In this document: positions 1-26,704 of the stretch, one piece after another | How the letters are laid out: every line of letters begins with the position of its first letter | Position numbering within the stretch: the first letter of the stretch is position 1 | Source: a virus | Taxonomy: Duplodnaviria > Heunggongvirae > Uroviricota > Caudoviricetes | DNA length: 28,806 bases | Virus record (IMG/VR): IMGVR_UViG_2529292922_000011 | Direction: 5' to 3' (one strand) | Translations under genes and position numbers: made by a program | Notes under the pieces: generated by a model | What the model was told of the DNA's origin: nothing | What the model saw: the letters and a program-made list of their open reading frames with translations, nothing else | Database searches by the model: none

Positions 1-10
1 AGTTATCAGA

Positions 11-75: not shown

Positions 76-291
76 ATGGACCAGATGGAAAAAATCACAA
101 CAGGTGTGTCATACACCACGTCAGCGGTGGGAACGGGCTACTGGTTCCTGCAGTTGCTGGACAGGGTTTCCCCGTCTCAGTGGGCGGCAATAGGCGTGCT
201 GGGGAGTCTGCTGTTTGGGCTGCTGACATATCTGACTAACCTGTATTTCAAAATCAGAGAGGACCGTCGTAAGGCGGCACGGGGAGAGTAA
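76..291 (+). CDS. Class II holin / pinholin, phage 21 S-like, with dual-start motif
   Basis: 71-aa product [11 protein letters not shown]...[24 protein letters not shown]...[13 protein letters not shown] closely matches phage 21 S (recalled from memory); two TM segments; Met codons at positions 1 and 4 as in the S21 antiholin/holin pair; GGAGA RBS upstream. Confidence 0.85.
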
Positions 292-295
292 TTCA

Positions 296-646: not shown

Positions 647-709
647 GTCACTGACCGGAACAGATAAACCTGTCCGTGGGCAGAAACCGATAAATCCTGA
701 TAAATATCC

Positions 710-1243
710 ATGAACGCAAAAATCAGATACGGCCTGTCGGCTGCCGTTCTGGCGCTGATTGCCGCTGGTGCGCCTGCGCCTGACATTCTCGACCAGTTTC
801 TGGATGAAAAGGAAGGTAACCACACCACGGCATACCGTGATGGCGCGGGTATCTGGACCATCTGCCGCGGTGCCATCCTGGTGGATGGCAAACCTGTCGT
901 TCCGGGCATGAAGTTGTCGAAGGAAAAATGCGACCGGGTTAACGCCATTGAGCGTGATAAGGCGCTGGCATGGGTGGAGAAAAACATCAAAGTGCCATTG
1001 ACCGAACCCCAGAAAGCGGGGATCGCGTCATTCTGTCCGTACAACATTGGTCCCGGTAAGTGTTTCCCGTCGACGTTTTACAGACGAATTAATGCAGGTG
1101 ATCGCAGGGGAGCATGCGAAGCGATTCGCTGGTGGATTAAGGACGGTGGCAGAGACTGCCGTATTCGCTCAAATAACTGTTACGGTCAGGTATTCCGTCG
1201 TGACCAGGAGAGCGCGCTGGCGTGCTGGGGAATCGACAGATAA
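710..1243 (+). CDS. SAR endolysin (phage lysozyme with N-terminal signal-anchor-release domain)
   Basis: N-terminal Gly/Ala-rich weak TM stretch GLSAAVLALIAAGAPA followed by an E...D...T catalytic arrangement (EKEGNHTTAYRDGAGIWT); pairing with a pinholin is the expected partner arrangement. Confidence 0.85.
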   Translation: MNAKIRYGLSAAVLALIAAGAPAPDILDQFLDEKEGNHTTAYRDGAGIWTICRGAILVDGKPVVPGMKLSKEKCDRVNAIERDKALAWVEKNIKVPLTEPQKAGIASFCPYNIGPGKCFPSTFYRRINAGDRRGACEAIRWWIKDGGRDCRIRSNNCYGQVFRRDQESALACWGIDR

Positions 1244-1337
1244 GCAGAATATTTTGCTGAAAAATGAGGTTGGCCAACGCGGGCGGATAACACGAAGTCC
1301 TGTGAACTGGCAAAACCTAAGTGAATAAAAGTAAAAA

Positions 1338-1372
1338 CCCCGTTTGTTGGCAGCAAGCGGGGTTTTGTTTTT
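1338..1372 (+). terminator. Rho-independent terminator after the endolysin
   Basis: 9-bp stem ccccguuug / caagcgggg (one G-U) with 7-nt loop, followed by ttttgttttt. Confidence 0.55.
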
Positions 1373-1535
1373 ATGGCAGTAAGCTATGGGAGGCTGCCTT
1401 GATTGATTTTAGCAAACTGATTAGGGAGTTGCGACTCATGATTAGTCAATTACCAAACTGGAAATTTTTGCTGGTCTGGAGCATCCCTTTTTTATGGGTA
1501 GTATCCCAGTTAATTGTGGCAATTAAGGGGTAGCT

Positions 1536-1667
1536 ATGTCAGACAAACTCATAACGCCGGCAAAGGTCCTGTGTGTGATTGTCGGTATTTCATTTTCACT
1601 AATGCTGGTTGCTCTTTTTCTGTCCCTCGCCTGGGTGATGTTGTCTTCGTCGGGGCTGCTGGGGTGA
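1536..1667 (+). CDS. Small hydrophobic single-TM peptide (43 aa), hypothetical
   Basis: ATG with AAGGGG RBS 5 nt upstream; product MSDKLITPAKVLCVIVGISFSLMLVALFLSLAWVMLSSSGLLG; its stop overlaps the next start (GTGA). Below the 60-aa cutoff of the supplied ORF track. Confidence 0.3.
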   Translation: MSDKLITPAKVLCVIVGISFSLMLVALFLSLAWVMLSSSGLLG

Positions 1668-1786
1668 CAGTGACTGATGACATCAGCAGAGCGCTGGCTT
1701 TTGCTATTAAGTGGGTGGCTGTTGGTATTGCTGTGTCTCCGATGCTGTATGGGCTGGCAAAACTGGTCATTGCGCTGAAATCGTGA
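1664..1786 (+). CDS. Small hydrophobic peptide (40 aa), hypothetical, GTG start
   Basis: Hydrophobic product ...ISRALAFAIKWVAVGIAVSPMLYGLAKLVIALKS; resembles the next peptide; start is coupled to the preceding stop. Confidence 0.3.
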   Translation: MTVTDDISRALAFAIKWVAVGIAVSPMLYGLAKLVIALKS

Positions 1787-1797
1787 ACTTTAAAAAG

Positions 1798-1884
1798 ATG
1801 AGTGCTGAACTTATTCGGGCAATGGCATTTGCCATTCGTATTGTGGCCATTGCTGTTCTGGTCTGGGCAATCCGTTGGTGGTGA
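1798..1884 (+). CDS. Small hydrophobic peptide (28 aa), hypothetical
   Basis: [28 protein letters not shown]; stop TGA lies 1 nt before the Rz ATG; resembles the previous peptide (RALAFAIKWVAVGIAV vs [16 protein letters not shown]). Confidence 0.3.
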
Positions 1885-1885
1885 T

Positions 1886-2380
1886 ATGAACCGTGTTCTG
1901 TGTGTGGTGATTATTGTCATGCTGGTAGCCTGTGGTGTGCTTAGTCTGGGGCTGAATCATTACCGCGATAACGCCATCACCTACAAAGCGCAGCGCGATA
2001 AAAAAGTCAGTGAGCTGAAACTGGCGAATGCCACTATTACTGACATGCAGCAGCGCCAGCGAGATGTCGCTGCGCTTGATGCCAGATACACGAAGGAATT
2101 AGCCGATGCGAGAGCTGAAAATGAAACTCTGCGCGCTGATGTTGCCGCTGGTCGTAAGCGCCTGCGGGTCAACGCCACCTGCCCCGGTACCGTGCGTGAA
2201 GCCACCGGCACCTCCAGCGTGGATAATGCAACCGGCCCCCGACTGGCAGACACCGCTGAACGGGATTATTTCATCCTCAGAGAACGGTTGATGACAATGC
2301 AGAAGCAGCTGGAAGGGGCGCAGGAATATATCCGCACTCAGTGCACTAAGCTGGCTTTTTATTATCCGGAGGATACATGA
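1886..2380 (+). CDS. Rz: Rz i-spanin (inner-membrane spanin subunit)
   Basis: [55 protein letters not shown]... is highly similar to lambda Rz (recalled); N-terminal TM segment plus coiled-coil periplasmic domain. Start is at an internal Met of the longer track ORF 1802..2380. Confidence 0.85.
2106..2291 (+). CDS. Rz1: Rz1 o-spanin (outer-membrane lipoprotein), embedded in Rz in the +1 frame
   Basis: [23 protein letters not shown]...[32 protein letters not shown] matches lambda Rz1, including the lipobox (VVSAC) and proline-rich region; fully nested in Rz. Confidence 0.8.
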
Positions 2381-2601
2381 AGAAATTACGGGTAACCGTA
2401 GAACCTTGTCAGGGAACAATTCCGTTCCGTATTTTGCAGCGTGGTCGTGTTCTTGTTGAAGGTTCGTTCAGTGGTAAATGTACGCAATTACACTCCCGGA
2501 CCTTTCAGGTGAATGCCACGAATGAAGAGCTAACCGTGGAGTGTACGATGAATGCCGCTAAATGCCGCATGGTATCCGCTGCATTACAGCCAGTGTGTTG
2601 A
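2377..2601 (+). CDS. Hypothetical 74-aa protein, translationally coupled to Rz
   Basis: ATG overlaps the Rz stop (ATGA) and is preceded by GGAGGA; product carries 5 Cys; no family recognised. Confidence 0.4.
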
Positions 2602-2799
2602 GCGACCTTATTATCCATGCGCGGTATTGTCGCCGTATTCCTGCATTAACAGAGACCGCAGCCCGACAGGGAGACTCCTCTGCGCGAGTGTGCGGGGATA
2701 ATCAAAAACGATACACACCGGGGTTTACCGCGTTAACGGAGCGCGGCGTTGTCCCCTCATAGTCGCCTGTCCGGTGCGATGGTGGAAGAAACCGAACGT

Positions 2800-3000
2800 T
2801 CATTTCTCGTTATTTGTCATGCTGGCCGGGCGCAGATGCGTTGCATCTGTTGCCAGCCTTCTCCTGCAGGCTTCAATAACCCACGCTGAAAAGTTACCGG
2901 ACCCTTTATGCTCAAGGGCGATGTTGATCTGTTCAATTATGTGATTGGGGAAACGGATATTGCGGGTTGTGGTTCTGCGGGTCCGGTTTTTCGATGACAT
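2800..3000 (-). CDS. YlcI-like small prophage protein (DUF3950-like)
   Basis: MSSKNRTRRTTTRNIRFPNHIIEQINIALEHKGSGNFSAWVIEACRRRL... resembles the E. coli DLP12 YlcI family found between lysis and terminase genes. I chose the internal Met at 3000 because of the AAAGGAAAT RBS; the track ORF runs to 3060. Confidence 0.55.
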   Translation of the reverse strand: MSSKNRTRRTTTRNIRFPNHIIEQINIALEHKGSGNFSAWVIEACRRRLATDATHLRPASMTNNEK

Positions 3001-3041
3001 ATTTATTTCCTTTACTGATTGCCATATGACGGGGATTTTAC

Positions 3042-3407
3042 ATGGCTGAGCTTCGTACACTCCAGAGCAGAATCAAAACACTGAATACCCGACGGGTGAA
3101 TATTCTGAAGGGGGAGCAGCGTCGTGTCAGTGGCAGTGCACGTGTTTCCCTCAAGCGTCATATCTGGCTGAGGGACGCCGGGCAGTGCTGTATCTGTGGT
3201 CGTGTGGTTGACCTCTGTGACAGTGAACTCGATCACCGAATTGCACTTCAGTTCGGTGGTGGTAATGAGGAGACGAATCTTTGGACGCTCTGTGCCGAAT
3301 GCCATCGACAAAAGTCTGCTCGTGAAGCGGCGAGTGGTATGCCGGACCCGACGCTGCCGGAGGTGTCCGGAGGTAGTGGCAGAGAGGACGACATCATCGG
3401 ACTGTAA
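3042..3407 (+). CDS. HNH endonuclease (terminase-associated)
   Basis: Cys-rich HNH core CCICGR...DLCDSELDHRIALQFGGGNEETNLWTLCAECHRQK; lies immediately upstream of the terminase genes, as HNH proteins do in cos-type HK97-like phages. Confidence 0.85.
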   Translation: MAELRTLQSRIKTLNTRRVNILKGEQRRVSGSARVSLKRHIWLRDAGQCCICGRVVDLCDSELDHRIALQFGGGNEETNLWTLCAECHRQKSAREAASGMPDPTLPEVSGGSGREDDIIGL

Positions 3408-3500
3408 CCCAACCCGGGGGGGGTATCATCCGGCGTAAAAAACGATCGCTTTGGACACCGCGCCCCCTCTCACGCAGAGAAAAAATTCCCGTTTCAGGGC

Positions 3501-3626
3501 AGTTAACATGTTAACTGGCTGCCCGGGCATTTTTGCGGTTTTTATCTTTATTATTCAGTTTGTTGTGCGGAAAAAATGTTAACAGGCTTTTTCAGCAAAT
3601 GTTAACCGGGCAGCAGTTAACATTTG
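3501..3626. repeat. Cluster of ATGTTAAC repeats including a 16-bp perfect palindrome; candidate cos / terminase-binding region
   Basis: AGTTAACATGTTAACT at 3501-3516 (perfect palindrome); ATGTTAAC at 3576-3583 and 3599-3606; inverted copy GTTAACAT at 3616-3623. All lie in the 290-bp noncoding gap between HNH and the small terminase. Confidence 0.4.
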
Positions 3627-3697
3627 CGGCATGAGACGCCGGGAAAAATGGGCTGAACCATACCCGGCTGAGTGCGTTCTGGACCCGGGAGGAGGCT

Positions 3698-4261
3698 GTG
3701 CTGACAACGCAAAAACGAAAATTTGCGCTGGCGCTCATGTCCGGGAAAAACAAAACAGCGTCAGCCATTGCCGCCGGTTATTCGGCGAAGACCGCCAGGG
3801 TTAAAGGCTCGCAGCTGGCAAAAGATCCGGAGGTGCTTGCGTTTATAGCCCGTAAACAATGCGAGACGGTGGAGGTGGATGAGGTTCCTGTTTACCGGCA
3901 GAAAAAATCAGAGCAGGAGGATAAACCCCGTCGCCGTGAGGCGGCTGCAATACCACAGCCGGACGAAAACAATCCGGAGATGCCACCGTCCGCGGTGATG
4001 TCTCCTGGTATTGAATATATGGAGGATGGTCTTCCCGATCCGGTGAAAGCCATGGGGCGGATCCTGGTGGAAAACCTCTGCATTGATCCGAAACTGGCAC
4101 TGGATGCGGCCTGGCGTCTGGCGCAGTTCACGCACCATAAAAAAGGGGATACCGGGAAAAAATCGGCAAAAGGTGATGCCGCGAAAAAAGCGGCTAACCG
4201 TTTTGCGGTGCCACCGCCACCCCGACTGGTGGTGAATAACGATAATGAGGGCAACGGATGA
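3698..4261 (+). CDS. Terminase small subunit
   Basis: GTG start behind a strong GGAGGAGG RBS; N-terminal HTH-like region QKRKFALALMSGKNKTASAIAAGYSAKTARVKGSQLAKDPEV typical of small terminases; directly precedes and overlaps the large subunit. Confidence 0.8.
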   Translation: MLTTQKRKFALALMSGKNKTASAIAAGYSAKTARVKGSQLAKDPEVLAFIARKQCETVEVDEVPVYRQKKSEQEDKPRRREAAAIPQPDENNPEMPPSAVMSPGIEYMEDGLPDPVKAMGRILVENLCIDPKLALDAAWRLAQFTHHKKGDTGKKSAKGDAAKKAANRFAVPPPPRLVVNNDNEGNG

Positions 4262-5919
4262 TACCTGTATGGAGCACAGCCTGCCCGGACTGGGCAGAGC
4301 GCCTGAAAAAGGGGCTGTCGATTATTCCGGATCCGATTTATCCGGACGAGGCCGCACATGCCCTGGCGATTTTTAAACAACTGCGGATTGTGGATGCACC
4401 TGGTAGCCCTACGTTCGGGGAGTCCTGTGCACCGTGGGTGTTTGACCTGGTGGCGGCCCTGTTTGGCTCCTACGATGCGCAGACCGGTGTACGCCATATC
4501 AAGGAAGTTTTTATCCTTATCCCCAAGAAAAACTCGAAGTCCACGCTGGCCGCGGGGATCATGATGACTGCACTGTTACTGAACTGGCGGCAGGCGGCGG
4601 GTTACACGATTCTGGCCCCGACTGTGGAGGTGGCGGCCAACGCCTTCAACCCTGCCCGGGATATGGTACGACGTGACGATGATCTGGATGACCTCTGCCA
4701 GGTACAGACCCATATCCGGACCATCACCCACCGGGTGACAGACACCACCCTGAAGGTGGTGGCAGCCGATCCGAATACGGTGTCCGGTATCAAGTCCGTG
4801 GGTACGCTGATTGATGAGTTGTGGCTGTTTGGCAAGCAGTGCAAGGCGGAGGACATGTTACGTGAAGCCATAGGCGGCCTTGCCTCCCGCCCGGAAGGGT
4901 TTGTGGTGTATACGACCACCCAGTCGAATGAACCGCCCGCCGGGGTGTTCAGACAGAAACTGCAGTACGCCCGGGATGTGCGCGACGGCAAAATTCATGA
5001 TCCGCACTTTCTGCCGGTGATATTTGAACACCCTCCTGAAATGGTGGAAAGCGGGGCTCACCTGCTGATGGAAAACCTCGCCATGGTCAATCCTAATCTC
5101 GGCTATTCAGTGGATGAGGCCTTTCTGTACCGGGAGTACCGTAAAGCCCGGGAAGCCGGTGAAGAGACATTCCGGGGGTTCATGTCAAAACACGCCAATG
5201 TGGAAATTGGTCTTGCCCTGCGCTCTGACCGCTGGGCGGGGGCTGATTTCTGGGAAGAGCAGGGCCGTTGTATCAGCCTGGACGATATCCTGCGTCGTGC
5301 TGATGTGGTGACGGTGGGGATTGACGGCGGAGGGCTGGATGATCTGCTGGGGATGTATGTGATTGGGCGTGACCGGGAGACCCGCGAATGGCTGGGCTGG
5401 GGCCATGCCTGGGCGCATGAAACCGCGGTGGTCCGACGGAAGAGCGAGGCGTCCCGGTTTCAGGATCTTGTTGCCTGTGGAGATATGACCATTGTCCGGC
5501 GTGTCGGGGATGACACGGCGGAAGTGGCGGAATATGTGCGTCGCATTCATGAGGCTGAGTTACTGGACCATATCGGTATTGACCCGTCAGGGGTGGGGCA
5601 GATTCTGGATTCACTGGCGGAAGCCGGGATCCCCGACGGAATTGTGGTGGGGATAAGCCAGGGCTGGAAACTGGGCGGGGCCATTAAAACCACCGAGCGC
5701 AAACTGGCTGAAGGGGTGCTGGTGCATGGTGACCAGCCCCTGATGGCCTGGTGTGTCGGCAATGCCCGGGTGGAGCCTAAAGGTAACGCCATTCTTATCA
5801 CCAAACAGGCCAGTGGACGGGGAAAAATTGACCCGCTGATGGCGCTGTTCAATGCGGTCTCCCTGATGTCCCTTAACCCGGAACCGAAAAAGAAAGAATA
5901 TGCGGTTTTTTTCATATAA
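4258..5919 (+). CDS. Terminase large subunit
   Basis: 553-aa product with ATPase-type N-terminal region and nuclease-type C-terminal region (VVTVGIDGGGLDD...); position between small terminase and head genes. Confidence 0.9.
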   Translation: MIPVWSTACPDWAERLKKGLSIIPDPIYPDEAAHALAIFKQLRIVDAPGSPTFGESCAPWVFDLVAALFGSYDAQTGVRHIKEVFILIPKKNSKSTLAAGIMMTALLLNWRQAAGYTILAPTVEVAANAFNPARDMVRRDDDLDDLCQVQTHIRTITHRVTDTTLKVVAADPNTVSGIKSVGTLIDELWLFGKQCKAEDMLREAIGGLASRPEGFVVYTTTQSNEPPAGVFRQKLQYARDVRDGKIHDPHFLPVIFEHPPEMVESGAHLLMENLAMVNPNLGYSVDEAFLYREYRKAREAGEETFRGFMSKHANVEIGLALRSDRWAGADFWEEQGRCISLDDILRRADVVTVGIDGGGLDDLLGMYVIGRDRETREWLGWGHAWAHETAVVRRKSEASRFQDLVACGDMTIVRRVGDDTAEVAEYVRRIHEAELLDHIGIDPSGVGQILDSLAEAGIPDGIVVGISQGWKLGGAIKTTERKLAEGVLVHGDQPLMAWCVGNARVEPKGNAILITKQASGRGKIDPLMALFNAVSLMSLNPEPKKKEYAVFFI

Positions 5920-5981
5920 CCCTGTTCACACTGTAACCATCACGAACCGCTCCGGCGGTTTTTTATTTTCAGGAGGCTGAT

Positions 5982-7919
5982 GTGACTCTTAAACGGGCCT
6001 GTTCCCTGCTGACGGTGAAATCCTTCAGTGAGGATGAACGAGTGATCACCGGGATTGCGTCAACGCCTTCTCCGGATCGGGATGGTGACATCCTGGAGCC
6101 GGAGGGCGCGGAGTTTGGCAGTGCGATCCCGTTTCTCTGGCAGCATGACCATTCCCGCCCGGTGGGGCAGTGTACGGTGCGCCGGGTCAGCGAAGGGCTG
6201 GAAATCACGGCAACACTGGTGAAGCCCGTACCGGATATGCCGTCGCAACTGGCTGCCCGGCTGGATGAGGTCTGGGCGGCCATTAAGACCGGGCTGGTCA
6301 GGGGGCTGTCCGTGGGCTTCCGTCCCCATGAATACACCTTTCTGGACGGAGGCGGACTGCATTTTCTGCGCTGGGAACTGATGGAGGTGTCTGCCGTCAC
6401 CGTGCCCGCGAATGCGGAATGCACCATCCGGACCATTAAATCTTACGACCGCCCGTTTTCTGCCGCGTCCGGCAACCGGAAACCGGTGGTGAAAATCGCA
6501 TCTTCTGCCGGCGCTGCGGCACAGTCAACAACCGTTTTTCATAAGGAAAAGACCATAATGAATATTGGCGAACAGATTAAAAGTTTTGAAAACAAGCGTG
6601 CAGCGCTGGCAGCCTCCCTTGAGGAGGTCATGACCAAAGCCGCAGAGGAAGGGCGCACGCTGGATGTGGAGGAGGAAGAGCATTACGACAACACCGCAGC
6701 GGAAATCCGTCAGGTGGATGCGCACCTGAAGCGCCTGCGTGAACTGGAAGCCGGTAAGGCCGCCACGGCGCAGCCGGTGAAACAGGCCGGTAACGGGAAT
6801 GTGGCCGCGGTGGCTTCTGCGCCGGTGATCCGTGTGGAGCAGAAACTGGATAAGGGGATTGGCTTCGCCCGCTTTGCCAAATCGCTGGCTGCGGCTAAAG
6901 GCGTCCGATCTGAAGCCCTGGAAGTGGCCCGTCGTCAGTATCCGGATGACAGTCGTCTGCATCATGTCCTGAAATCGGCAGTGGGCGCGGGGACCACCAC
7001 GGATCCGCAGTGGGCAGGCAGCCTGTCTGAATATCAGGAATACGCACAGGACTTTATTGATTACCTGCGTCCGCAGACCATTATCGGGCGATTTGGTCAG
7101 GGCGGGATCCCTGCACTTCGTCAGGTGCCGTTCAATATCCGTGTGCACGCCCAGGTGTCCGGCGGTGCTGCCGGCTGGGTGGGTGAGGGTAAGGCAAAAC
7201 CCCTGACGAAGTTTGATTTTGAATCCATCACCTTCAGTCATGCGAAGGTGTCGGCCATTGCGGTACTGACGGAAGAATTGATCCGTTTTTCCAGTCCGGC
7301 TGCTGATGCACTGGTCCGTAATGCGCTGGCGGAAGCGGTGGTGGCGCGTCTGGATACAGACTTTGTGGACCCGAAAAAAGCCGCAGTGGCAGATGTCTCC
7401 CCGGCGTCCATCACCCATGATGTGAAGGGCACGGCATCAACCGGTAACCCGGATGCGGATGCAGAGGCTGCGTTTGGACAGTTTGTGGCAGCAAACCTGC
7501 AGCCCACCGGTGCGGTCTGGCTGATGTCCAGCACCAATGCCCTGGCACTGTCCATGCGTAAAAATGCGCTGGGTCAGAAGGAATACCCGGACATGACCCT
7601 GCTGGGTGGCTCCTTCCAGGGGCTGCCGGTGATTGTCTCCCAGTACGTGGGTGACCAGCTGGTGCTGGTGAATGCCCCGGATATTTATCTGGCGGATGAC
7701 GGAGGCGTGGCAGTGGATATGTCCCGCGAGGCATCACTGGAAATGCAGTCTGAGCCGACCGGCGACAGTACCACGCCGTCCCCGGTGGAGCTGGTTTCCA
7801 TGTTCCAGACAGGCAGCGTGGCCATCCGTGCGGAGCGCTGGATCAACTGGCGTCGTCGCCGTACCGCGGCGGTGGCGGTGATCACCGGAGTGAACTACGG
7901 CAGTGCGTCCGGCGGCTGA
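5982..7919 (+). CDS. Prohead protease - major capsid protein fusion (HK97-type)
   Basis: N-terminal ~170 aa carry prohead-protease motifs (GIASTPSPDRDGDIL, GLSVGF); from residue ~193 a coiled-coil delta domain followed by an HK97-fold capsid domain. One uninterrupted frame of 645 aa; internal AAGGAAAAG RBS plus ATG at 6558. Confidence 0.85.
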   Translation: MTLKRACSLLTVKSFSEDERVITGIASTPSPDRDGDILEPEGAEFGSAIPFLWQHDHSRPVGQCTVRRVSEGLEITATLVKPVPDMPSQLAARLDEVWAAIKTGLVRGLSVGFRPHEYTFLDGGGLHFLRWELMEVSAVTVPANAECTIRTIKSYDRPFSAASGNRKPVVKIASSAGAAAQSTTVFHKEKTIMNIGEQIKSFENKRAALAASLEEVMTKAAEEGRTLDVEEEEHYDNTAAEIRQVDAHLKRLRELEAGKAATAQPVKQAGNGNVAAVASAPVIRVEQKLDKGIGFARFAKSLAAAKGVRSEALEVARRQYPDDSRLHHVLKSAVGAGTTTDPQWAGSLSEYQEYAQDFIDYLRPQTIIGRFGQGGIPALRQVPFNIRVHAQVSGGAAGWVGEGKAKPLTKFDFESITFSHAKVSAIAVLTEELIRFSSPAADALVRNALAEAVVARLDTDFVDPKKAAVADVSPASITHDVKGTASTGNPDADAEAAFGQFVAANLQPTGAVWLMSSTNALALSMRKNALGQKEYPDMTLLGGSFQGLPVIVSQYVGDQLVLVNAPDIYLADDGGVAVDMSREASLEMQSEPTGDSTTPSPVELVSMFQTGSVAIRAERWINWRRRRTAAVAVITGVNYGSASGG

Positions 7920-8130
7920 GTCTGATAAGGAGGACGGGAGGCGTGCGCCTCCCGTAACAGGTTATGGCAAAGATCCGATATCTGCAGGGCACGCATGATG
8001 CCCGGGCCGGGGATATCCGTGATGTGGCACAGCCGTGTGCGGAGGTGCTGGTTCGCCTGGGAAAGGCGGAGTACATCACGGTGCGACGTCCGGCAGGTCA
8101 GAAAAAGAAACGAGATGCGGAGCATGGCGA

Positions 8131-15264: not shown

Positions 15265-18200
15265 ATGGCGACGTTACGTGAACTGATTATCAAAATTTCG
15301 GCAAATTCGCAGTCATTCCAGTCGGAGATCCAGCGGGCTTCCCGCATGGGCAGTGAATATTACCGGACCCTGCAGAATGGCGGGCGTCAGGCTGCCGCAG
15401 TCGCCCGGGAGCAGCGACGCGCCCTGGCTGAGCTGAACAGCCAGTTGACGGAAATCCGCGCTTCAGCTGCCGGAACGGCGGGGGCATTTGCAGGTGCCTT
15501 TGCCACCGGACACCTGATTTCTCTGGCCGATGAATGGAGTTCCGTGAATGCCCGACTGAAACAGGCGTCGCAGTCATCCGATGAATTTTCGTCATCACAG
15601 AAAGTGCTGATGGATATCAGCCAGCGGACGGGCACGGCATTTTCAGATAATGCGGCCCTGTTTGCCCGCTCGGCAGCCTCAATGCGTGAATATGGTTACA
15701 GTGCTGATGATGTGCTGAAGGTGACGGAGGCCATTTCCACGGGGCTGAAAATCTCCGGTGCCAGTACGGCAGAGGCGGGCTCGGTGATCACCCAGTTCAG
15801 CCAGGCGCTGGCACAGGGTGTGTTACGCGGTGAGGAATTTAATTCGGTCAATGAAAGCGGAGACCGGATCGTACGTGCACTGGCTGCGGGTATGGGCGTG
15901 GCCCGTAAAGACCTTAAGGCGATGGCGGACGACGGCAAACTGACGGCGGATAAAGTCGTTCCTGCGTTAATCAGCCAGCTGGGGGTATTGCGTGATGAAT
16001 ATGCCGCCATGCCGGAAACGGTCTCTGACGGGATCACAAAGGTGGAAAACGCCTTTATGGCCTGGGTGGGTGGCGCGAATGAAGCCAGCGGAGCGACGAA
16101 AACGCTCTCCGGCGTGCTGAACGGTGTTGCCGGTAATATTGATAATGTGGCAACAGCCGCTGGGGCGCTGGTTGCCGTCGGGGTTGCCCGGTACTTTGGC
16201 AATATGGCCTCCGGAGCGGTGTCTGCCACGGCAGGACTTGTGACGGCAGCACGTAATGAAGTGGCACTGGCGGAAGCACAGCTCAGGGGGACGCAGATTG
16301 CCACGGCGCGGGCAAGGGCAGCCGTGTACCGTGCACAGCAGGCTGTGGCGGCAGCCCGCGGGACGGAGATGCAGATTGCTGCAGAAGCCCGTCTGGCGGC
16401 CACACAGGAACGCCTGAACAGAAATATTGCTGCCAGAACCGCAGCCCAGAATGCGCTGAACAGTACAACGGCGGTGGGCTCACGTCTGATGACTGGTGCG
16501 TTGGGACTGGTTGGTGGCGTACCCGGACTGGTGATGCTGGGGGCAGCAGCATGGTATACGCTGTACCAGAATCAGGAGCAGGCCAGGGAGTCAGCGCGCC
16601 AGTATGCACTGACGATAGATGAAATCGCGCATAAAACGCTGTCAATGTCTTTGCCTGAAGCCTCAGATAATGAAGGACGAACACGGGCGGCGCTGGCAGA
16701 GCAGAACCGGCTGATTGATGAACAGGCCAGCCGGGTGAAATCCCTGCAGGAAAAAATCGCTGGATATCAGTATGTTCTGGCTAACCCTGGCTGGACAACC
16801 GGTGACGGATTCATGATAAACCATCTGACATCGGTGAAGACCGTGACGGAAGGGCTTTCTCAGGCAACAGAGCAGCTTGCCGTTGAGCAGTCCCGTCTGG
16901 CACAGATGCAGGAAAAAGCGCAGTCCATTCAGGATGTGCTTGCCGGGCTGGAAGACCGTCGTGTGGCGTTAATTCGTCAGCAGGCGACAGAGCAGAATAA
17001 GGTGTACCAGTCCATGCTGGTTATGAACGGTCAGCATACGGAATTCAACCGTCTGCTGGGGCTGGGTAATGAACTGCTTCAGCAGCGGCAGGGACTGGTG
17101 AATGTGCCGTTACGGCTGCCACAGGCCACTCTGGATGATAAACAGCAGAGTGCCCTGACAAAAACAGAGCGTGAGCTGGCCCTGTCCAGACTGAAAGGGG
17201 AAGAAAAAGAGCGTGTCCGACTGGGGTATGCGGCGGATGACCTCGGTTTTGTGGGTGAACCGTATCAGGAGGCGAGACAACGTTATATCAGTAATGCCCT
17301 GGAAGCCTGGCGCAATAACGAGGCGAATAAACCCAAATCCCGGGGTGGAAAATCAGAGACGGAAAAAGCGGAAGACAGTTTTTCCCGGCTGCTGAAGCAG
17401 CAGAAAGAGCAATTGGCACTTGCGGGGCAGAATACAGAGCTGGCGAAGCTGAAATACCAGACTGCGCAGGGCGAACTGAAAACCCTGACGGAGATGCAGA
17501 AGCAGGAACTGCTGCGCAATGCGGCCCTGATTGACCAGCAAAAAATCCGGGAGCAGTTGCGGTCCCGGGAAGAGACCCTGAAGAATGATAATGTGGCTGC
17601 GCGTGCATCAAATGAAGCGGAACTGCTGGGGTACGGGCAGGGAGAGCGGCTCCGTGAACGCATGCGGGAGTTGCAGCAGATCCGCGACAGTTTCCGCCAG
17701 AAGGATGCGGACCTTCAGTCTCAGTATCAGACCGGGGATATCAGTGAGGATTTTTACAGACAGGCTCTGGCACAGAACGCGCAGTATCTGAGTGAACGTC
17801 TGAAAGAGCAGGAAGCCTTTTATGCCGAATCGGATGTGCAGCGTGCGGACTGGCAGAAAGGGCTGCAGGAGGGATTCAGTAACTGGGTGGATAATGCGTC
17901 CGATTACGCCTCACAGGCAGCACAGCTGGCGACGGAGGGTATCTCAGGGATGGTGAATAACATCACGGAGATGCTGAACGGAAATAAAGTGGAATGGCGC
18001 AGCTGGGCCTCATCAGTGCTGCAGGAAATATCAAAAGTTCTTATGAATGCCGCGATTGACAACGGGATCAAGACGGCGGCAAACAGTATGTCCGGAGCGG
18101 GAGGATTTATCGGCAGTATTGGTAGCTGGCTGGGCGGTGCGGTGGCCAATGCAAAAGGCGGGGTGTATACCTCGGCAAACCTGAGTGCGTACAGCAACAG

Positions 18201-18507
18201 TATTGTGGATACGCCCACGTACTTTGCCTTTGCAAAAGGGGCGGGACTGATGGGGGAGGCCGGTCCTGAAGCCATTATGCCCCTGACCCGGGCGGCGGAT
18301 GGCTCGCTGGGTGTGCGAGCGGTGGGCAGTATGAACGGCAGTGCAGGTCTGGTGTATTCCCCGGTCTACCATATCGCCATTCAGAATGACGGGACTAATG
18401 GCCAGATAGGGCCGGAAGCTGCGGGCAGCCTTGTGCAACTGATTGACCAGCGGGTGCAGGCGGTGATGCTGTCCATGCGACGTGACGGAGGAATGCTGAG
18501 TGGCTGA
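15265..18507 (+). CDS. H: Tail tape measure protein (lambda H-like)
   Basis: 1080 aa, Ala/Gln-rich coiled-coil protein; C-terminal region (IQNDGTNGQIGPEAAGS...RDGGMLSG) matches the lambda H C-terminus (recalled). Confidence 0.9.
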   Translation: MATLRELIIKISANSQSFQSEIQRASRMGSEYYRTLQNGGRQAAAVAREQRRALAELNSQLTEIRASAAGTAGAFAGAFATGHLISLADEWSSVNARLKQASQSSDEFSSSQKVLMDISQRTGTAFSDNAALFARSAASMREYGYSADDVLKVTEAISTGLKISGASTAEAGSVITQFSQALAQGVLRGEEFNSVNESGDRIVRALAAGMGVARKDLKAMADDGKLTADKVVPALISQLGVLRDEYAAMPETVSDGITKVENAFMAWVGGANEASGATKTLSGVLNGVAGNIDNVATAAGALVAVGVARYFGNMASGAVSATAGLVTAARNEVALAEAQLRGTQIATARARAAVYRAQQAVAAARGTEMQIAAEARLAATQERLNRNIAARTAAQNALNSTTAVGSRLMTGALGLVGGVPGLVMLGAAAWYTLYQNQEQARESARQYALTIDEIAHKTLSMSLPEASDNEGRTRAALAEQNRLIDEQASRVKSLQEKIAGYQYVLANPGWTTGDGFMINHLTSVKTVTEGLSQATEQLAVEQSRLAQMQEKAQSIQDVLAGLEDRRVALIRQQATEQNKVYQSMLVMNGQHTEFNRLLGLGNELLQQRQGLVNVPLRLPQATLDDKQQSALTKTERELALSRLKGEEKERVRLGYAADDLGFVGEPYQEARQRYISNALEAWRNNEANKPKSRGGKSETEKAEDSFSRLLKQQKEQLALAGQNTELAKLKYQTAQGELKTLTEMQKQELLRNAALIDQQKIREQLRSREETLKNDNVAARASNEAELLGYGQGERLRERMRELQQIRDSFRQKDADLQSQYQTGDISEDFYRQALAQNAQYLSERLKEQEAFYAESDVQRADWQKGLQEGFSNWVDNASDYASQAAQLATEGISGMVNNITEMLNGNKVEWRSWASSVLQEISKVLMNAAIDNGIKTAANSMSGAGGFIGSIGSWLGGAVANAKGGVYTSANLSAYSNSIVDTPTYFAFAKGAGLMGEAGPEAIMPLTRAADGSLGVRAVGSMNGSAGLVYSPVYHIAIQNDGTNGQIGPEAAGSLVQLIDQRVQAVMLSMRRDGGMLSG

Positions 18508-18841
18508 GATAAAAACGCTGCATCTGGTCCCGCGTGAAGGGATGCAGGTGAGTGAGAAACCGTCGGTGGCGAGGGTACGGTTTGGTGACGGTTATGAACA
18601 GCGCCGCCCGACGGGACTTAATGCCCGACTGAAGACGTTTCAGGCGGTGTTCCGGGTGACGGATGAGGCGACCCGGCGATGGCTGGAAGAGTTTTTATCG
18701 TGGCATGGTGGTTACCGTGCCTTTTTGTGGCGACCGCCGAAACATAACCGGACGGTGAGGGTGGTATGCCGGGAGTGGAGCGTCACAGATAACGCCAGGT
18801 ACAGTGATTTCAGTTGTACGATTGAGCAGGTGGTGAACTGA
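18500..18841 (+). CDS. M: Minor tail protein M
   Basis: VRFGDGYEQRRPTGLNARLKTFQAVF...FLWRPP...EQVVN matches lambda M (VRFGDGYSQRAPAGLNANLKTY...EQVVN, recalled). Confidence 0.9.
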   Translation: MAEIKTLHLVPREGMQVSEKPSVARVRFGDGYEQRRPTGLNARLKTFQAVFRVTDEATRRWLEEFLSWHGGYRAFLWRPPKHNRTVRVVCREWSVTDNARYSDFSCTIEQVVN

Positions 18842-19539
18842 TGCAGGATATTCACGAAGAAAGTCTGAACGAGTCGGTTAAATCAGAGCAGTCACCGCGG
18901 GTGGTACTCTGGGAAATCGACCTGACGGTACAGGGTGGTGAGCGGTATTTTTTCTGCAATGAGCTGAATGAAAAAGGGGAGGCGGTTACCTGGCAGGGGC
19001 GGCAATATCAGGCATACCCGATTGACGGCAGTGGCTTTGAGATGAACGGGAAGGGCAGCAGTGCCCGCCCGTCGCTGACGGTGTCGAATCTGTTCGGTCT
19101 GGTCACCGGAATGGCGGAGGACCTGCAGAGCCTGGTGGGGGCCACGGTGGTCCGCCGCCGGGTGTATGCCCGTTTTCTGGATGCGGTGAATTTTGTGGCG
19201 GGCAATCCGGAAGCGGACCCGGAGCAGGAGCTGAGCGACCGCTGGGTGGTGGAGCAGATGTCAGAGCTGACGGCCATGACAGCCTCGTTTGTGCTGGCAA
19301 CACCGACGGAGACGGACGGAGCGCTGTTTCCCGGTCGCATCATGCTGGCGAACACCTGTATGTGGGATTACCGGGGAGATGAATGCGGGTATAACGGTCC
19401 TGCGGTGGCGGATGAGTTCGATAAACCCACCACCGATATCCGTAAGGACAGATGCAGCAAGTGCATGCGCGGGTGTGAGATGCGCGGCATGGTGGCTAAT
19501 TTTGGCGGTTTCCTTTCCATTAACAAACTTTCGCAGTAA
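18841..19539 (+). CDS. L: Minor tail protein L
   Basis: 232 aa with C-terminal Cys cluster (CSKCMRGCEMRGM); lambda L position and size. Confidence 0.85.
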   Translation: MQDIHEESLNESVKSEQSPRVVLWEIDLTVQGGERYFFCNELNEKGEAVTWQGRQYQAYPIDGSGFEMNGKGSSARPSLTVSNLFGLVTGMAEDLQSLVGATVVRRRVYARFLDAVNFVAGNPEADPEQELSDRWVVEQMSELTAMTASFVLATPTETDGALFPGRIMLANTCMWDYRGDECGYNGPAVADEFDKPTTDIRKDRCSKCMRGCEMRGMVANFGGFLSINKLSQ

Positions 19540-19544
19540 ATCCA

Positions 19545-20290
19545 ATGACACAGACAGAATCAGCGATTCTGGCGCATGCCCGGCGGTGTGTGCCTGCGGA
19601 GTCGTGCGGCTTCGTGGTGAGAACGCCGGAGGGGGAGCGGTATATCCCTTGTGTGAATATCTCTGCAGAGCCTGAGGCATATTTTCGTATTGCCCCGGAA
19701 GACTGGCTGCGGGCAGAGATGCAGGGGGAGATTGTGGCGCTGGTTCACAGTCGTCCCGGTGGTCTGCCCTGGCTGAGCGAGGCTGACCGGCGGCTGCAGA
19801 TAAAAAAGCGCACTGCCCTGGTGGCTGGTCAGCCGGGGTGACATTCACAAATTCCGCTGCGTTCCGCACCTGACCGGACGGCGCTTTGAACACGGGGTGA
19901 CGGACTGTTACACCCTGTTCCGGGATGCATACCATCTGGCGGGGATTGAGATGCCGGATTTTTCACCGTGAGGATGAGTGGTGGCGCAACGGTCAGAACC
20001 TGTACCTGGACAATATGGAGGCAACGGGCTTTTACCGGGTGCCCCTGTCCTCTGCACAGGCGGGCGATATCCTGCTGTGCTGCTTTGGCGCATCGGTGGC
20101 CAATCATGCCGCCATTTACTGCGGCAACGGTGAACTGCTTCACCATCTGCCTGAACAACTGAGTAAACGGGAGAGGTATTCCGAAAAATGGCAACGACGA
20201 ACGCATTCTGTCTGGCGTCACCGCCACTGGCACGCATCTGCCTTCACGGGGATTTGCAACGATTTGGCCGCCGCCTCAGCCTGTATGTGA
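19545..20290 (+). pseudogene. K: Tail assembly protein K, split into three frames by two single-base insertions
   Basis: Frame 0 (19545-19841) matches lambda K N-terminus MTQTESAILAHARRC...LPWLSEADRRLQ; the +1 frame continues ...LPWWLVSRGDIHKFRCVPHLTGRRFEHGVTDCYTLFRDAYHLAGIEMPDF; the +2 frame (to 20290) continues HREDEWWRNGQNLYLDN... Shifts coincide with an A6 run (19802-19807) and a T5 run (19959-19963). Confidence 0.8.
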
Positions 20291-20868
20291 ACACGGCAGC
20301 GGAAGCCATCCGGGCGCTGTCGTTACAGGTGCCGGGATTCCGCCGTCAGATGAACGAAGGCTGGTACCAGATACGTATTGCCGGTGAAGACACGGCACCG
20401 GAGGTGGTGTACGCCCGCCTTCACGAACAGCTGGGTGAGGGAACGGTCATCCACATTGTGCCGCGACTGGCCGGGGCCGGAAAGGGTGGACTGCAGATTG
20501 TGTTGGGGGCGGCAGCCATCGTGGGCTCTTTCTTCACTGCCGGGGCATCAATGGCGTTATGGGGTTCAGCCCTGGCAGCCGGTGGTTTTTCTGCCACCAC
20601 GATGCTGTTTTCTCTGGGGGCCAGCATGATTCTGGGCGGTGTGGCCCAGATGCTGGCCCCGAAGGCAAAAACACCGGATTACCGCGCAACGGATAACGGC
20701 AGACAGAACACGTACTTTTCCTCGCTGGATAACATGATTGCCCAGGGGAACCCGATGCCGGTGCCTTACGGGGAAATGCTGGTTGGCTCCCGCCGTATAT
20801 CCCAGGACATCAGCACCCGTGATGAAGGCGGGGGCGGAAAGGTCGTGGTTATCGGGCGACAGGGATAA
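20188..20868 (+). CDS. I: Tail assembly protein I
   Basis: MATTNAFCLASPPLARICLHGDLQRFGRR...GASMILGGVAQMLAPKAKTP...NTYFSSLDNM matches lambda I nearly throughout (recalled). Confidence 0.9.
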   Translation: MATTNAFCLASPPLARICLHGDLQRFGRRLSLYVNTAAEAIRALSLQVPGFRRQMNEGWYQIRIAGEDTAPEVVYARLHEQLGEGTVIHIVPRLAGAGKGGLQIVLGAAAIVGSFFTAGASMALWGSALAAGGFSATTMLFSLGASMILGGVAQMLAPKAKTPDYRATDNGRQNTYFSSLDNMIAQGNPMPVPYGEMLVGSRRISQDISTRDEGGGGKVVVIGRQG

Positions 20869-20881
20869 AACATAAAAAAAT

Positions 20882-20906
20882 CCCGCAGTGATCGCGGAGC
20901 TGCGGG
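20882..20906. other. GC-rich hairpin in the I-J intergenic region (terminator-like when read on the minus strand)
   Basis: cccgcag / ctgcggg stem with 11-nt loop, A7 on the 5' side on the + strand (a U7 tail if transcribed from the - strand). Confidence 0.3.
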
Positions 20907-21044
20907 GACAGACAAATGAAGATCAATGTGAAGGAGTTGTTTTTGTTACTCGGGCAAAAAAACACTAACGCAGCGAAATTATAAGCGCCACAGTCAGTGT
21001 GTGAAAATGTGAAGATATTCAGAAATTTTATTCCGTCATGACGC

Positions 21045-21073
21045 AGGCACCCGGTGAGGTGCCTGTTGTTTTT
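21045..21073 (+). terminator. Terminator-like hairpin just upstream of J
   Basis: aggcacc / ggugccu stem with 6-nt loop followed by gttgttttt. Confidence 0.4.
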
Positions 21074-21108
21074 GTGAGTGAACAATTATCACGGTAAGAG
21101 GTGATGTA

Positions 21109-24100
21109 ATGGGCAAAGGTGGCGGCAAGGCGCACACACCGCGTGAGGCGAAAGACAATCTCAAATCCACGCAGATGATGAGCGTGATTGATGCGATTGG
21201 TGAGGGACCGATAGAAGGCCCGGTGAAAGGCCTGCAGAGTATTCTGGTGAACAAAACCCCGCTGACGGACACGGACGGTAATCCCGTGATACACGGTGTG
21301 ACGGCGGTCTGGCGCGCCGGGGAGCAGGAGCAGACACCACCGGAAGGCTTTGAGTCCTCCGGAGCTGAAACCGGACTGGGCGTGGAAGTGACGAAGGCAA
21401 AGCCGGTAACGCGCACCATTACATCCGCGAACATTGACCGCCTGCGGGTCACCTTCGGGGTGCAGTCACTGTTGGAGACCACCTCAAAGGGCGACCGTAA
21501 TCCCTCTTCTGTCCGACTGCTGATTCAGTTGCAGCGTAACGGTAACTGGGTGACGGAAAAGGATGTCACCATTAACGGCAAGACCACCTCACAGTACCTG
21601 GCGTCGGTGATTCTGGAGAATCTGCCTGAGCGGCCCTTTAACATCCGGATGGTCCGGGAGACAGCGGACAGCACCTCGGACCAGCTGCAGAATAAGACGC
21701 TCTGGTCGTCATACACCGAAATCATCGATGTGAAACAGTGCTACCCGAACACGGCGATTGTGGGGCTGCAGGTGGATGCGGAGCAGTTTGGCGGTCAGCA
21801 GATGACGGTGAACTACCATATCCGAGGTCGCATCATCCAGGTGCCGTCAAACTATGACCCGGAAAAACGCACGTACAGCGGCATCTGGGACGGCAGCCTG
21901 AAACCGGCATACAGCAACAACCCGGCCTGGTGCCTGTGGGACATGCTGACTCACCCGCGCTACGGCATGGGAAAACGTCTGGGGGCGGCAGACGTGGACA
22001 AATGGGCGCTGTATGCCATCGGGCAGTACTGCGACCAGACGGTCCCGGATGGTTTCGGGGGCACAGAGCCGCGGATGACCTTTAATGCGTACCTGTCACA
22101 ACAGCGTAAGGCATGGGATGTGCTCAGTGATTTCTGCTCGGCGATGCGCTGTATGCCGGTATGGAACGGCCAGACGCTGACGTTCGTTCAGGACCGCCCG
22201 TCGGATGTGGTGTGGCCGTACACCAACTGCGATGTGGTGGTGGATGATAACGGCGTGGGGTTTCGCTACAGCTTCAGCGCCCTGAAGGACCGCCACACGG
22301 CGGTGGAGGTGAATTACACCGACCCGCAGAACGGCTGGCAGACCTCCACGGAACTGGTGGAAGACCCGGAAGCCATACTGCGCTACGGGCGCAACCTGCT
22401 GAAGATGGATGCGTTCGGTTGCACCAGTCGCGGTCAGGCCCACCGTGCCGGGCTGTGGGTGATAAAGACCGGACTGCTGGAAACGCAGACGGTGGATTTC
22501 ACGCTCGGGTCACAGGGGCTGCGTCACACACCCGGTGACATTATTGAAATCTGTGATAACGACTATGCCGGGACCATGACCGGCGGACGTATCCTGTCCA
22601 TCGATGCCGCCAGCCGCACCCTGACACTGGACCGTGAGGTGACCCTGCCGGAGACAGGTGCCGCCACGGTGAACCTGATTAACGGCAGCGGTAAGCCGGT
22701 GAGCGTGGCCATCACCGAACACCCCGCGCCGGACCGGATACAGGTCAGTACCCTGCCTGATGGTGTGGAGACATACGGGGTGTGGGGACTCTCCCTGCCG
22801 TCACTGCGCCGTCGCCTGTTCCGCTGTGTCTCCGTCCGGGAAAACACGGACGGCACCTTTGCCATCACGGCGGTGCAGCACGTACCGGAAAAAGAAGCCA
22901 TCGTGGATAACGGTGCCCGCTTTGAGCCGCAGTCAGGTTCCCTGAACAGCGTCATCCCACCGGCAGTGCAGCACCTGACGGTGGAGGTGAGCGCAGCTGA
23001 CGGCCAGTATCTGGCGCAGGCGAAATGGGACACGCCGCGGGTGGTGAAGGGTGTGCGCTTCAGTCTGCGCCTGACCAGTGGTAAGGGAACGGATGCCAGA
23101 CTGGTGACCACCGCCATCACCGCAGACACGGAGCACCGTTTCAGCGGCCTGCCGCTCGGGGAATACACCCTGACGGTGCGGGCGATAAACAGCTATGGCC
23201 AGCAGGGTGAACCTGCCACCACCACCTTCCGGATTGCCGCACCGGCAGCACCGTCGCGGATTGAGCTGACGCCGGGCTATTTTCAGATAACCGCCACGCC
23301 GCATCTTGCCGTTTATGACCCGACGGTACAGTTTGAGTTCTGGTTCTCGGAAAAGCGGATTGCGGATATCAGGCAGGTTGAAACCGCAGCCCGCTATCTT
23401 GGCTCGGCGCTGTACTGGATAGCTGCCAGTATCAATATCAAACCGGGCCATGATTATTATTTTTATATCCGCAGTGTGAATACTGTTGGCAAATCGGCAT
23501 TTGTGGAGGCTGTTGGCCAGCCGAGTGATGATGCATCCGGCTATCTGGATTTTTTCAAAGGAGAGATAGGGAAAACCCATCTGGCTCAGGAGTTGTGGAC
23601 GCAGATTGATAACGGTCAGCTTGCGCCTGATCTGGCTGAAATCAGGACGTCCATTACGAATGTCAGCAATGAAATCACGCAGACCGTCAATAAAAAACTG
23701 GAAAATCAGAGCGCGGCAATCCAGCAGATACAGAAAGTTCAGGTTGATACAAATAATAACCTGAACAGCATGTGGGCCGTGAAACTGCAGCAGATGAAGG
23801 ACGGACGCCTTTATATTGCGGGTATCGGAGCCGGTATTGAGAATACGCCAGCAGGTATGCAGAGTCAGGTGCTTCTGGCTGCTGACCGGATTGCGATGAT
23901 TAATCCTGCGAATGGCAACACAAAGCCGATGTTTGTTGGTCAGGGCGATCAGATATTCATGAACGAAGTGTTCCTGAAATACCTGACGGCTCCCACCATT
24001 ACCAGTGGCGGTAATCCTCCGGCATTTTCCCTGACACCGGACGGGCGGCTGACGGCGAAAAATGCCGATATCAGCGGTAACGTGAATGCGAACTCCGGGA

Positions 24101-24582
24101 CGCTCAACAACGTCACGATTAACGAAAACTGTCGGGTTCTGGGAAAACTGTCCGCCAACCAGATTGAAGGCGATCTCGTTAAAACAGTGGGCAAAGCTTT
24201 CCCCCGGGACTCCCGTGCACCGGAGCGGTGGCCATCAGGGACCATTACCGTCAGGGTTTATGACGATCAGCCGTTTGACCGGCAGATTGTTATTCCGGCG
24301 GTGGCATTCAGCGGCGCTAAACATGAGAAAGAGCATACTGATATTTACTCCTCATGCCGTCTGATAGTGCGGAAAAACGGTGCTGAAATTTATAACCGTA
24401 CCGCGCTGGATAATACGCTGATTTACAGTGGTGTTATTGATATGCCTGCCGGTCACGGTCACATGACACTGGAGTTTTCGGTGTCAGCATGGCTGGTGAA
24501 TAACTGGTATCCCACAGCAAGTATCAGCGATTTGCTGGTTGTGGTGATGAAGAAAGCCACCGCAGGCATCAGTATCAGCTGA
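21109..24582 (+). CDS. J: Tail tip / central tail fibre host-specificity protein J
   Basis: 1157 aa; near-colinear with lambda J over ~1000 residues ([22 protein letters not shown]..., fibronectin-like region, ...[20 protein letters not shown]...); the last ~150 aa diverge. Confidence 0.9.
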
Positions 24583-25400: not shown

Positions 25401-26704
25401 ATGACAGTAAAAATTTCTGGCGTGCTTAAAGATGGCACAGGAAAACCAGTACAGAACTGCACCATTGTGCTGAAGGCCAGACGAACCAGCAGCACGGTGG
25501 TGGTGAACACGGTGGCCTCTGAAAATCCGGATGAAGCCGGACGTTACAGCATGGATGTTGAGCATGGTCAGTACAGCGTCACCCTGCTGGTTGAAGGTTT
25601 TCCGCCTTCACATGCCGGGACCATTACCGTCTATGAAGGTTCCAGACCAGGTACGCTGAATGATTTTCTCGGTGCCATGACGGAGGATGATGTCCGACCG
25701 GAGGCACTGCGTCGTTTTGAACTGATGGTGGAAGAAGCGGCGCGTCACGCTGAGGAGGCGAAGAAGAATGCCGGAGAGGCGGAGACGTCCGCGAGGAATG
25801 CCGGCATATCAGCCAGTCAGGCAGAAGAGAGCGCTGCAAATGCTGACACTTCAGCAGGGGATGCATCGGAGTCAGCCCGGCAGGCGGCAGAAAGTGCAGC
25901 CGCTGCAAAGCAGTCAGAGGAGGCGTCCTCGTCCTCGGCCTCTGCGGCTGCTCAAAAAGCCAGTGAGTCATCACAAAGTGCAGCAGATGCTGAGTTGTCA
26001 AAAAAGACGGCAGAAAGTGCAGCCGGTAATGCAGCCAGGGATGCAACGACCGCAACAGAAAAAGCCCGGGAGTCAGCAGAAAGCGCACAGTCAGCGGAAC
26101 AAAGCAGGATAGCGGCGGAAGAAGCCGTAAACCGAATCCCGACCGTGGTGGGGCCTCCCGGGCCAAAGGGGGAACCGGGGCCCGCGGGTCCTCAGGGGCC
26201 GAAGGGAGATAAAGGAGAGCGTGGCGACACCGGCCCGGCAGGGGCAACCGGCGAACGGGGACCGGCAGGTGATGCTGGTCCGGCAGGCCCGCAGGGGCCG
26301 AAAGGTGACAGGGGAGAGCGGGGAGAGACCGGTCTGACGGGAAATGCAGGTCCACAGGGTCCAAAGGGAGATACCGGTGCGGCAGGCCCGGCAGGCCCAC
26401 AGGAGAAACAGGTGCGGCTGGCCCGGTGGGGGCAACCGGACCTCAGGGACCGAAGGGCGACCCGGGGGAGACACAAATCCGTTTTCGTCTGGGGCCGGCG
26501 AGCATTATTGAGACAAACAGCAATGGCTGGTTCCCGGATACAGATGGCGCACTCATCACCGGACTGACCTTTCTTGACCCCAAAGATGCCACACAGGTTC
26601 AGGGGCTGTTTCGGCATTTGCAGGTCAGGTTTGGTGACGGGCCGTGGCAGGATGTTAAGGGGCTGGATGAAGTGGGCAGTGATACAGGCAGAACAGGAGA
26701 ATGA
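25401..26704 (+). pseudogene. Side tail fibre protein (lambda Stf-like N-terminus, collagen-like repeats), interrupted by a 1-nt deletion
   Basis: N-terminus [28 protein letters not shown]...[15 protein letters not shown] matches lambda Stf (recalled); Ser/Ala-rich region; Gly-X-Y collagen repeats from ~26150. The Gly-X-Y periodicity breaks at 26400-26403 and resumes in the -1 frame, which continues to the stop at 26704. Confidence 0.75.

Follow-up and report, generated by a model that had tools for sequence, protein, structure and literature searches.

The question raised by this locus is whether the tail assembly gene K of an E. coli prophage has been broken by mutation or only appears broken in a draft sequence. 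The window, by which we mean the whole 28,806-bp stretch of DNA that was analysed, is the complete contig AIEX01000029.1 of the E. coli DEC1C draft assembly GCA_000249095.2. It carries the late region of a lambdoid prophage, beginning with the lysis genes and continuing with the terminase, capsid, portal and head-tail connector genes. Downstream of these, the tail genes follow in the order V-G-T-H-M-L-K-I-J, then come lom and a tail fibre gene, and nested IS66/IS21 elements lie at the end.

Gene K as deposited and as repaired

An earlier note, made from the sequence of the window, had held that K is split by two +1 insertions in homopolymer runs and that the two insertions do not cancel. Translation of positions 19545-20290 bears out both statements. 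Homology to K is distributed over frames 0, +1 and +2, and a three-frame translation showed that repair at one site alone leaves the ORF broken; removal of both one A and one T is needed, and it yields an ORF of 744 nt. The coordinates of the two runs, their lengths (A6 and T5) and the direction of the indels were all given correctly in that note, as was a count of 248 codons for the intact gene, which corresponds to 247 amino acids and a stop. A continuous frame of about 247 codons is present in every relative examined, and it is this frame that the deposited K, with its two +1 shifts, fails to provide.

The ATG of K lies six bases past the stop of gene L and opens an N-terminus, MTQTESAILAHARRC, that is as in lambda-type K. 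From there the deposited gene falls into three pieces (Table 1). Fragment 1 covers most of the JAB/MPN domain, which is cut at residue 86 (Prok-JAB, E 1.3e-11). The middle segment, which lacks its own start codon near the 5' end, holds the catalytic Cys121 of the NlpC/P60 domain (in the motif DCYTLF). The T5 shift splits the NlpC/P60 domain, and the C-terminal part of this domain, with the His in NHAAIY, is found in fragment 3 without the catalytic Cys (NlpC/P60, E 3.6e-9). In the annotation of the contig, small ORFs stand in place of K, and they would be spurious if the indels are errors.

In the repaired protein, Prok-JAB (PF14464) was matched at residues 3-105 (E 2.7e-12) and NlpC/P60 (PF00877) at residues 111-224 (E 4.8e-14). 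The repaired 247-amino acid sequence is identical to a database protein found on 16 other contigs, and it is also exactly the K protein of sister strains. This exact match to a database protein, together with the domain matches, rules out a chance resemblance as the source of the split K. EHU13776.1, an accession on the exact intact K, may come from DEC1C. A Logan contig, SRR094165_1123 (L009), has T4 and the same I protein and was considered as a copy from DEC1C; it was rejected on account of its DEC1A/B-type bases at 20613, 20616 and 20619.

Table 1. Features of the window and their positions. Indels are given relative to the near-identical prophage of the NCTC genome GCA_900448265.1.
Feature	Position	Strand	Remarks
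G run, indel	3416		G8 in window, G9 in NCTC genome; odd one out is NCTC genome (E2348/69 agrees with window)
T6 run, intergenic, indel	5959..5964	+	Terminator-like sequence after large terminase gene; T7 in E2348/69, NCTC genome and GCA_965140055; odd one out is window
ISEc13 (IS4 family)	11386..12935	-	Direct repeat (target duplication) GTCGGCTGGG; a few codons before end of head-closure gene
1.8-kb repeat	18825..20636		3' part of L, all of K and 5' part of I; both K indels inside
Gene L, minor tail protein L	18841..19539	+	Intact; Phage_tail_L, E 6e-92; directly upstream of K
Gene K, tail tip assembly protein K	19545..20290	+	JAB and NlpC/P60; interrupted; PGAP name "C40 family peptidase"
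K fragment 1	19545..19841	+	98-aa ORF: codons 1-86 in frame, 12 out-of-frame codons, stop at 19839-19841
A6 run, first +1 shift	19802..19807	+	Shift at codon 87, between JAB and NlpC/P60; A5 in close relatives and in NCTC genome; odd one out is window
K middle segment	19808..19958	+	Codons 87-138, frame +1; stop just past T run
K fragment 3	19925..20290	+	121-aa ORF, frame +2; K-homologous from 19964 (codons 139-247), stop at 20288-20290
T5 run, second +1 shift	19959..19963	+	Shift at codon 139, inside NlpC/P60; T4 in relatives and in NCTC genome; odd one out is window
Gene I, tail assembly protein I	20188..20868	+	Ubiquitin-like N-terminal domain; Lambda_tail_I, E 1.2e-16
Gene J	21109-24582		From ORF list and domain matches
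10-bp deletion site, indel	26401..26402	+	AGGGACCGAA missing in window, present in NCTC genome and L038; collagen-like repeat region; odd one out is window

By domain content, synteny and sequence identity, the gene belongs to the lambda K (TAPK) family. Lambda K lies between L and I, as in the window (K at 14276-14875 and I at 14773-15444 in lambda coordinates), and in both phages gene I starts within K, so that the two overlap by 103 nt. Lambda K has the same pair of domains, Prok-JAB and NlpC/P60, and is 85% identical to the repaired K across the 199 amino acids annotated in lambda; the N-terminus of the window K is the same in resequenced lambda derivatives. The window K differs from lambda K in that its ORF is broken twice as deposited and in that it reads HSRPGG instead of HSHPGG. 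In lambda, gpK is required for tail assembly and has gone undetected in virions (PMC10721106, PMC12617516), and a role in processing the ubiquitin-like protein I has been predicted for it (PMC1779556).

K alleles in other assemblies

An identical prophage is absent from the complete RefSeq E. coli genomes, among which the nearest relative is the nleA-carrying prophage of E2348/69 (NC_011601, 1.44-1.475 Mb), one of the defective lambdoid prophages of EPEC/EHEC. The late genes of the two are in the same order from the lysis genes to the tail fibres, and identity is 99-99.96% across most of the window (99.96% over 1-11385). In the L-K-I-J region, however (about 18.9-22.7 kb in the window), E2348/69 carries a different mosaic allele, and ISEc13 sits elsewhere in its prophage.

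The same prophage was found in the E. coli NCTC genome GCA_900448265.1 (UFZD01000005.1, 741,854-775,386). It has in common with the window an identical ISEc13 insertion and the same portal arrangement of a 454- and a 407-amino acid ORF. Its K gene, at about 760,351-761,094 of that record, has A5 and T4 and encodes an intact 247-amino acid protein identical to the repaired K of the window. When positions 1050-28806 of the window were compared with this genome, 27,757 bases were aligned with two substitutions and five indel events. Both substitutions (27433 and 28194) lie within the multicopy IS66 element, and either sequence may be the odd one out there. Four of the five indel events are one-base changes in homopolymer length, and over the 6.7 kb from 16545 to 23290 the extra A and the extra T in K are the sole differences. 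The changes private to the window are three of these homopolymer changes and the 10-bp deletion, that is, four indel events as compared to two substitutions.

A second prophage of the NCTC genome, which carries sodC between I and J, holds an exact repeat of the segment 18825-20636, and in short-read assemblies the segment emerges as separate contigs of 1.8-1.9 kb. To judge by the sequences, this exact repeat would fit a recent exchange between resident prophages, by gene conversion or recombination.

All 13 of the other K-bearing loci that cover the two sites have A5 and/or T4. They include the sister DEC drafts AIEV, AIEW, AIFB and AIFC, as well as RN587/1, E2348/69, an ENA metagenome scaffold and Logan contigs. 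A search of 5,426 complete E. coli genomes gave 26 records that match a 219-nt stretch spanning both sites perfectly save for the two extra bases, and neither A6 nor T5 occurred in any of the 26. Exact-pattern scans of IMG/VR and metagenome contigs gave no instance of T5. The A6 pattern was likewise found in no metagenome contig and in a single IMG/VR contig, compared to at least 120 IMG/VR contigs with A5. The frameshifted K products of 98 and 121 amino acids were absent from a collection of 15 billion proteins.

The single IMG/VR contig (L038, IMGVR_UViG_2541047429_000043) carries its A6, within 7307-7331, in a different K allele that is 95% identical to that of the window, and it has T4 at the second site. 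This A6 points to one of two things, a miscall of the same type in a further draft genome or slippage that recurs at the run. Save for this different allele, the A6 and T5 alleles of K are private to one assembly.

Probable miscalls and the alternatives of decay and recoding

Taken together, these comparisons of sequence suggest that the extra A and T are homopolymer-length miscalls in the DEC1C draft contig and not mutations, a reading to which we assign a probability of roughly 0.8. The earlier note had regarded lesions and sequencing errors as equally likely, and on this point the evidence is unbalanced: the extra bases are private, the near-identical prophage and the other copies of K have A5 and T4, and the private differences are almost all indels and not substitutions. 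The changes are of the kind that miscalls leave behind, namely one-base changes in run length (A5 to A6, T4 to T5 and, at 5959, T7 to T6) with an excess of indels over substitutions. They also resemble the homopolymer errors of 454-type drafts, which are one-base changes in A, T or G runs, occur in one assembly only and produce apparent frameshifts in conserved genes, as here.

In the mutation spectra of E. coli, substitutions outnumber indels by about 10:1, and in mismatch-repair-deficient strains transitions are still more frequent than indels. About 26 kb of unique sequence is free of substitutions between the window and the NCTC genome. Given that figure, we assumed 0.3 expected real indels as an illustrative ceiling, under which the Poisson probability of three or more private indels is about 0.004. 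The distance between the two K indels is 157 bp, and both fall in a single 744-bp gene within 27.7 kb; the probability of this is about 3% if no selection acts. A technical cause explains both observations, the pattern of indels without substitutions and the clustering of the two K indels. A locally poor consensus fits as well, since the two lie so close together inside an exact 1.8-kb repeat between prophages.

If the extra bases are miscalls, the real DEC1C prophage would have A5 and T4 and would encode an intact 247-amino acid K of the lambda type. Such a protein would combine an N-terminal JAB/MPN domain with a C-terminal NlpC/P60 cysteine peptidase domain and would be a tail tip assembly factor that stays outside the virion. 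The errors would fall in a 1.8-kb stretch that is duplicated exactly in another prophage of the lineage, which is where the poorest consensus quality would be expected. We infer a technical cause, a pyrosequencing platform and the presence of the second prophage copy in DEC1C itself. The contig is free of any N across both the 1.8-kb repeat and the 1.55-kb copy of ISEc13, an element with about 30 copies in the related E2348/69, and this fits a paired-end 454 and Celera assembly of that period. The related draft RN587/1 was produced with 454 Titanium and Celera at the same sequencing centre (PMC3715677).

One alternative is that both insertions are real and arose by recent slippage in DEC1C, so that K is a pseudogene in the ordinary decay of a defective lambdoid prophage. 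Homopolymer runs are natural hot spots of real frameshifts, and this prophage was already damaged: the ISEc13 insertion at the 3' end of the head-closure gene is real, as it is common to the NCTC relative. With an IS in the head genes, selection may no longer act on K, which makes real decay plausible. The 10-bp deletion, which is private to the window and shifts the frame of the tail fibre gene, is also untypical of homopolymer error, and this copy could really have accumulated indels. The A6 in the independent K allele of L038 could mean that the run is a genuine slippage hot spot. In addition, 6.7 kb of paralogous prophage from four sister drafts, including the 454-sequenced RN587/1, showed no homopolymer indels when compared with the NCTC genome. 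The error rate of the draft series is thus not uniformly high, which slightly weakens the argument for error without overturning it. On the other hand, three private homopolymer indels with no substitution in the unique sequence run against real mutation spectra, including those of mismatch-repair-deficient strains, in which substitutions exceed indels. Two independent indels would have had to strike the same 744-bp gene, with the probability of about 3% given above, and neither allele occurs in any other assembly of the same K sequence. We consider real decay unlikely on this evidence.

Were the indels real, the DEC1C copy would yield a truncated JAB fragment. It could yield no active C40 (NlpC/P60) peptidase, because the piece with Cys121 has no nearby start and the His lies in a separate ORF. 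Assembly of the tail tip from this copy would then fail unless another prophage supplied K. The earlier note had concluded that the prophage could in that case make no functional tails. The premise that K is needed for tail assembly stands; the conclusion has to be qualified. ISEc13 at the head-closure gene and the tail fibre deletion bear on it as well, the K segment is duplicated in the second prophage of the closest relative, which could provide K in trans, and the virion does not contain gpK (PMC10721106). Complementation in trans by the identical K of a second prophage in DEC1C is conceivable.

It could also be speculated that the insertions are real and that K is still made, or is switched, by +1 ribosomal or transcriptional slippage or by phase-variable runs. 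By inference, the exact wild-type K would result if tRNA-Lys re-paired by +1 on AAA-AAA and tRNA-Phe did so on TTT-TT. The heptamer A-AAA-AAG, a classic -1 slippery sequence, is in phase in the zero frame, and A6 is also found in one other K allele, that of L038. A -1 programmed frameshift at the heptamer was rejected, since the -1 frame stops after 24 codons and K continues in the +1 frame. Against recoding of any kind, both required shifts are +1 and the A site has no rare or stop codon. Efficient transcriptional slippage takes runs of about nine or more bases, and A6 and T5 are far shorter. The two events would have to occur in succession, so that their low efficiencies multiply, and a programmed site should be conserved, whereas the relatives are all in frame with A5 and T4. 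Recoding or phase variation is therefore highly improbable. We give just as little credence to the proposal that the runs are hypermutable and that recurrent +1 slippage, as in the window and L038, reversibly switches off lambdoid tail-tip assembly; functional K could in that event return through back-slippage, low-level +1 recoding or gene conversion, the last with the identical second-prophage copy as donor.

To return to miscalls, the split K is most likely not a real feature, and it is of little biological weight either way. If the insertions are errors, they amount to a quality flaw of one 2012-era draft contig, through which an intact tail assembly gene is mistaken for a pseudogene. If they are real, they are routine decay of a prophage that already bears an IS insertion. 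Homopolymer frameshift artefacts in drafts and the pseudogenisation of prophages are both already well known. The lesson for screening is that homopolymer frameshifts in draft contigs should be compared with near-identical assemblies before gene loss is inferred; where reads are absent, indels without substitutions are a useful warning sign.

The JAMM motif, gene I and other variable sites

The JAMM motif has been defined as E-x(n)-H-S/T-H-x7-S-x2-D (PMC300881). It is incomplete in the K allele of this lineage: Glu19, His68, Ser78 and Asp81 are kept, and position 70 is Arg. The codon concerned (window 19752-19754) gives HSRPGG in place of the HSHPGG of lambda, E2348/69, L002 and 12 cluster members, and the residue lost is the second zinc-ligand His of the motif. 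Arg70 is independent of the indels. It was found in all 16 contigs with the exact intact K, including both NCTC prophage copies, and the change is therefore real. The altered motif suggests that the JAB metalloprotease activity of K is lost or dispensable in this lineage.

The reference sequence of lambda has a discrepancy of its own in K. Relative to resequenced lambda, imm21 (700-1002), imm434, DE3, HK629/HK630 and others, J02459/NC_001416 lacks one G after GAGGC at about 14260-14265. With this G restored, lambda K is a continuous ORF of 247 codons with an MTQTES start at about 14133. Absence of the G throws the first 45 codons out of frame, and the annotated protein of 199 amino acids starts at 14276 and misses the JAMM Glu; this 199-amino acid annotation is still copied in several newer lambda records. 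The discrepancy offers a precedent in a 1982 reference, but it is a missing G and not a long-homopolymer change as in the window.

The gene I product is identical to EHU13508.1 of E. coli DEC1C. In PGAP-type annotations of relatives, the gene begins at a GTG that overlaps the K stop (20287-20868, 193 amino acids). A lambda-like start is located 33 codons further upstream, inside K, and gives a protein of 226 amino acids with MATTNAFCLASPPLARICLHGDLQRFGRR, which is close to the MAATHTLPLASPGMARICLYGDLQRFGRR of lambda I. Part of the ubiquitin-like domain is probably missing from the 193-amino acid version.

Insertion of ISEc13 results in a 136-amino acid head-closure product whose tail derives from the IS. 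The NCTC genome and GCA_965140055 have this insertion too, and the ORF at its junction was found in long assemblies only. The transposase ORF of ISEc13 has 429 codons from a GTG in the window, compared to 457 amino acids in E2348/69.

As a result of the 10-bp deletion, the tail fibre gene (25401-26567) encodes 388 amino acids instead of 437. E2348/69 has a 10-base gap in the same stretch of the gene, and a protein look-up found the 388-amino acid truncated form on no contig besides that of the window. The deletion could be real or could reflect misassembly of paralogous fibre genes.

The G run at 3416-3423 lies just downstream of an HNH endonuclease gene (3042-3407) and before the small terminase gene. 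The window and E2348/69 have G8 here, the NCTC genome has G9 and GCA_965140055 has G10.

A second polymorphic G run, at 9476-9480, is G5 in the window, the NCTC genome and several Illumina and Logan assemblies, and G6 in E2348/69 and GCA_965140055. The G5 at the portal gene was considered as a further error and rejected, as it occurs in many independent assemblies, Logan contigs among them. In the G5 state, a 454-amino acid portal ORF is followed by the 407-amino acid ORF, the two overlapping by ATGA; in the G6 state they are fused into a "portal protein" of 861 or 807 amino acids. The run occupies the position expected of a ribosome-binding site for the downstream ORF. This 407-amino acid ORF, which has no Pfam match on record, contains tandem repeats of about 162 bp at 9656-10249 with about 91% mutual identity, and the number of repeat copies varies among assemblies (299 amino acids in L029).
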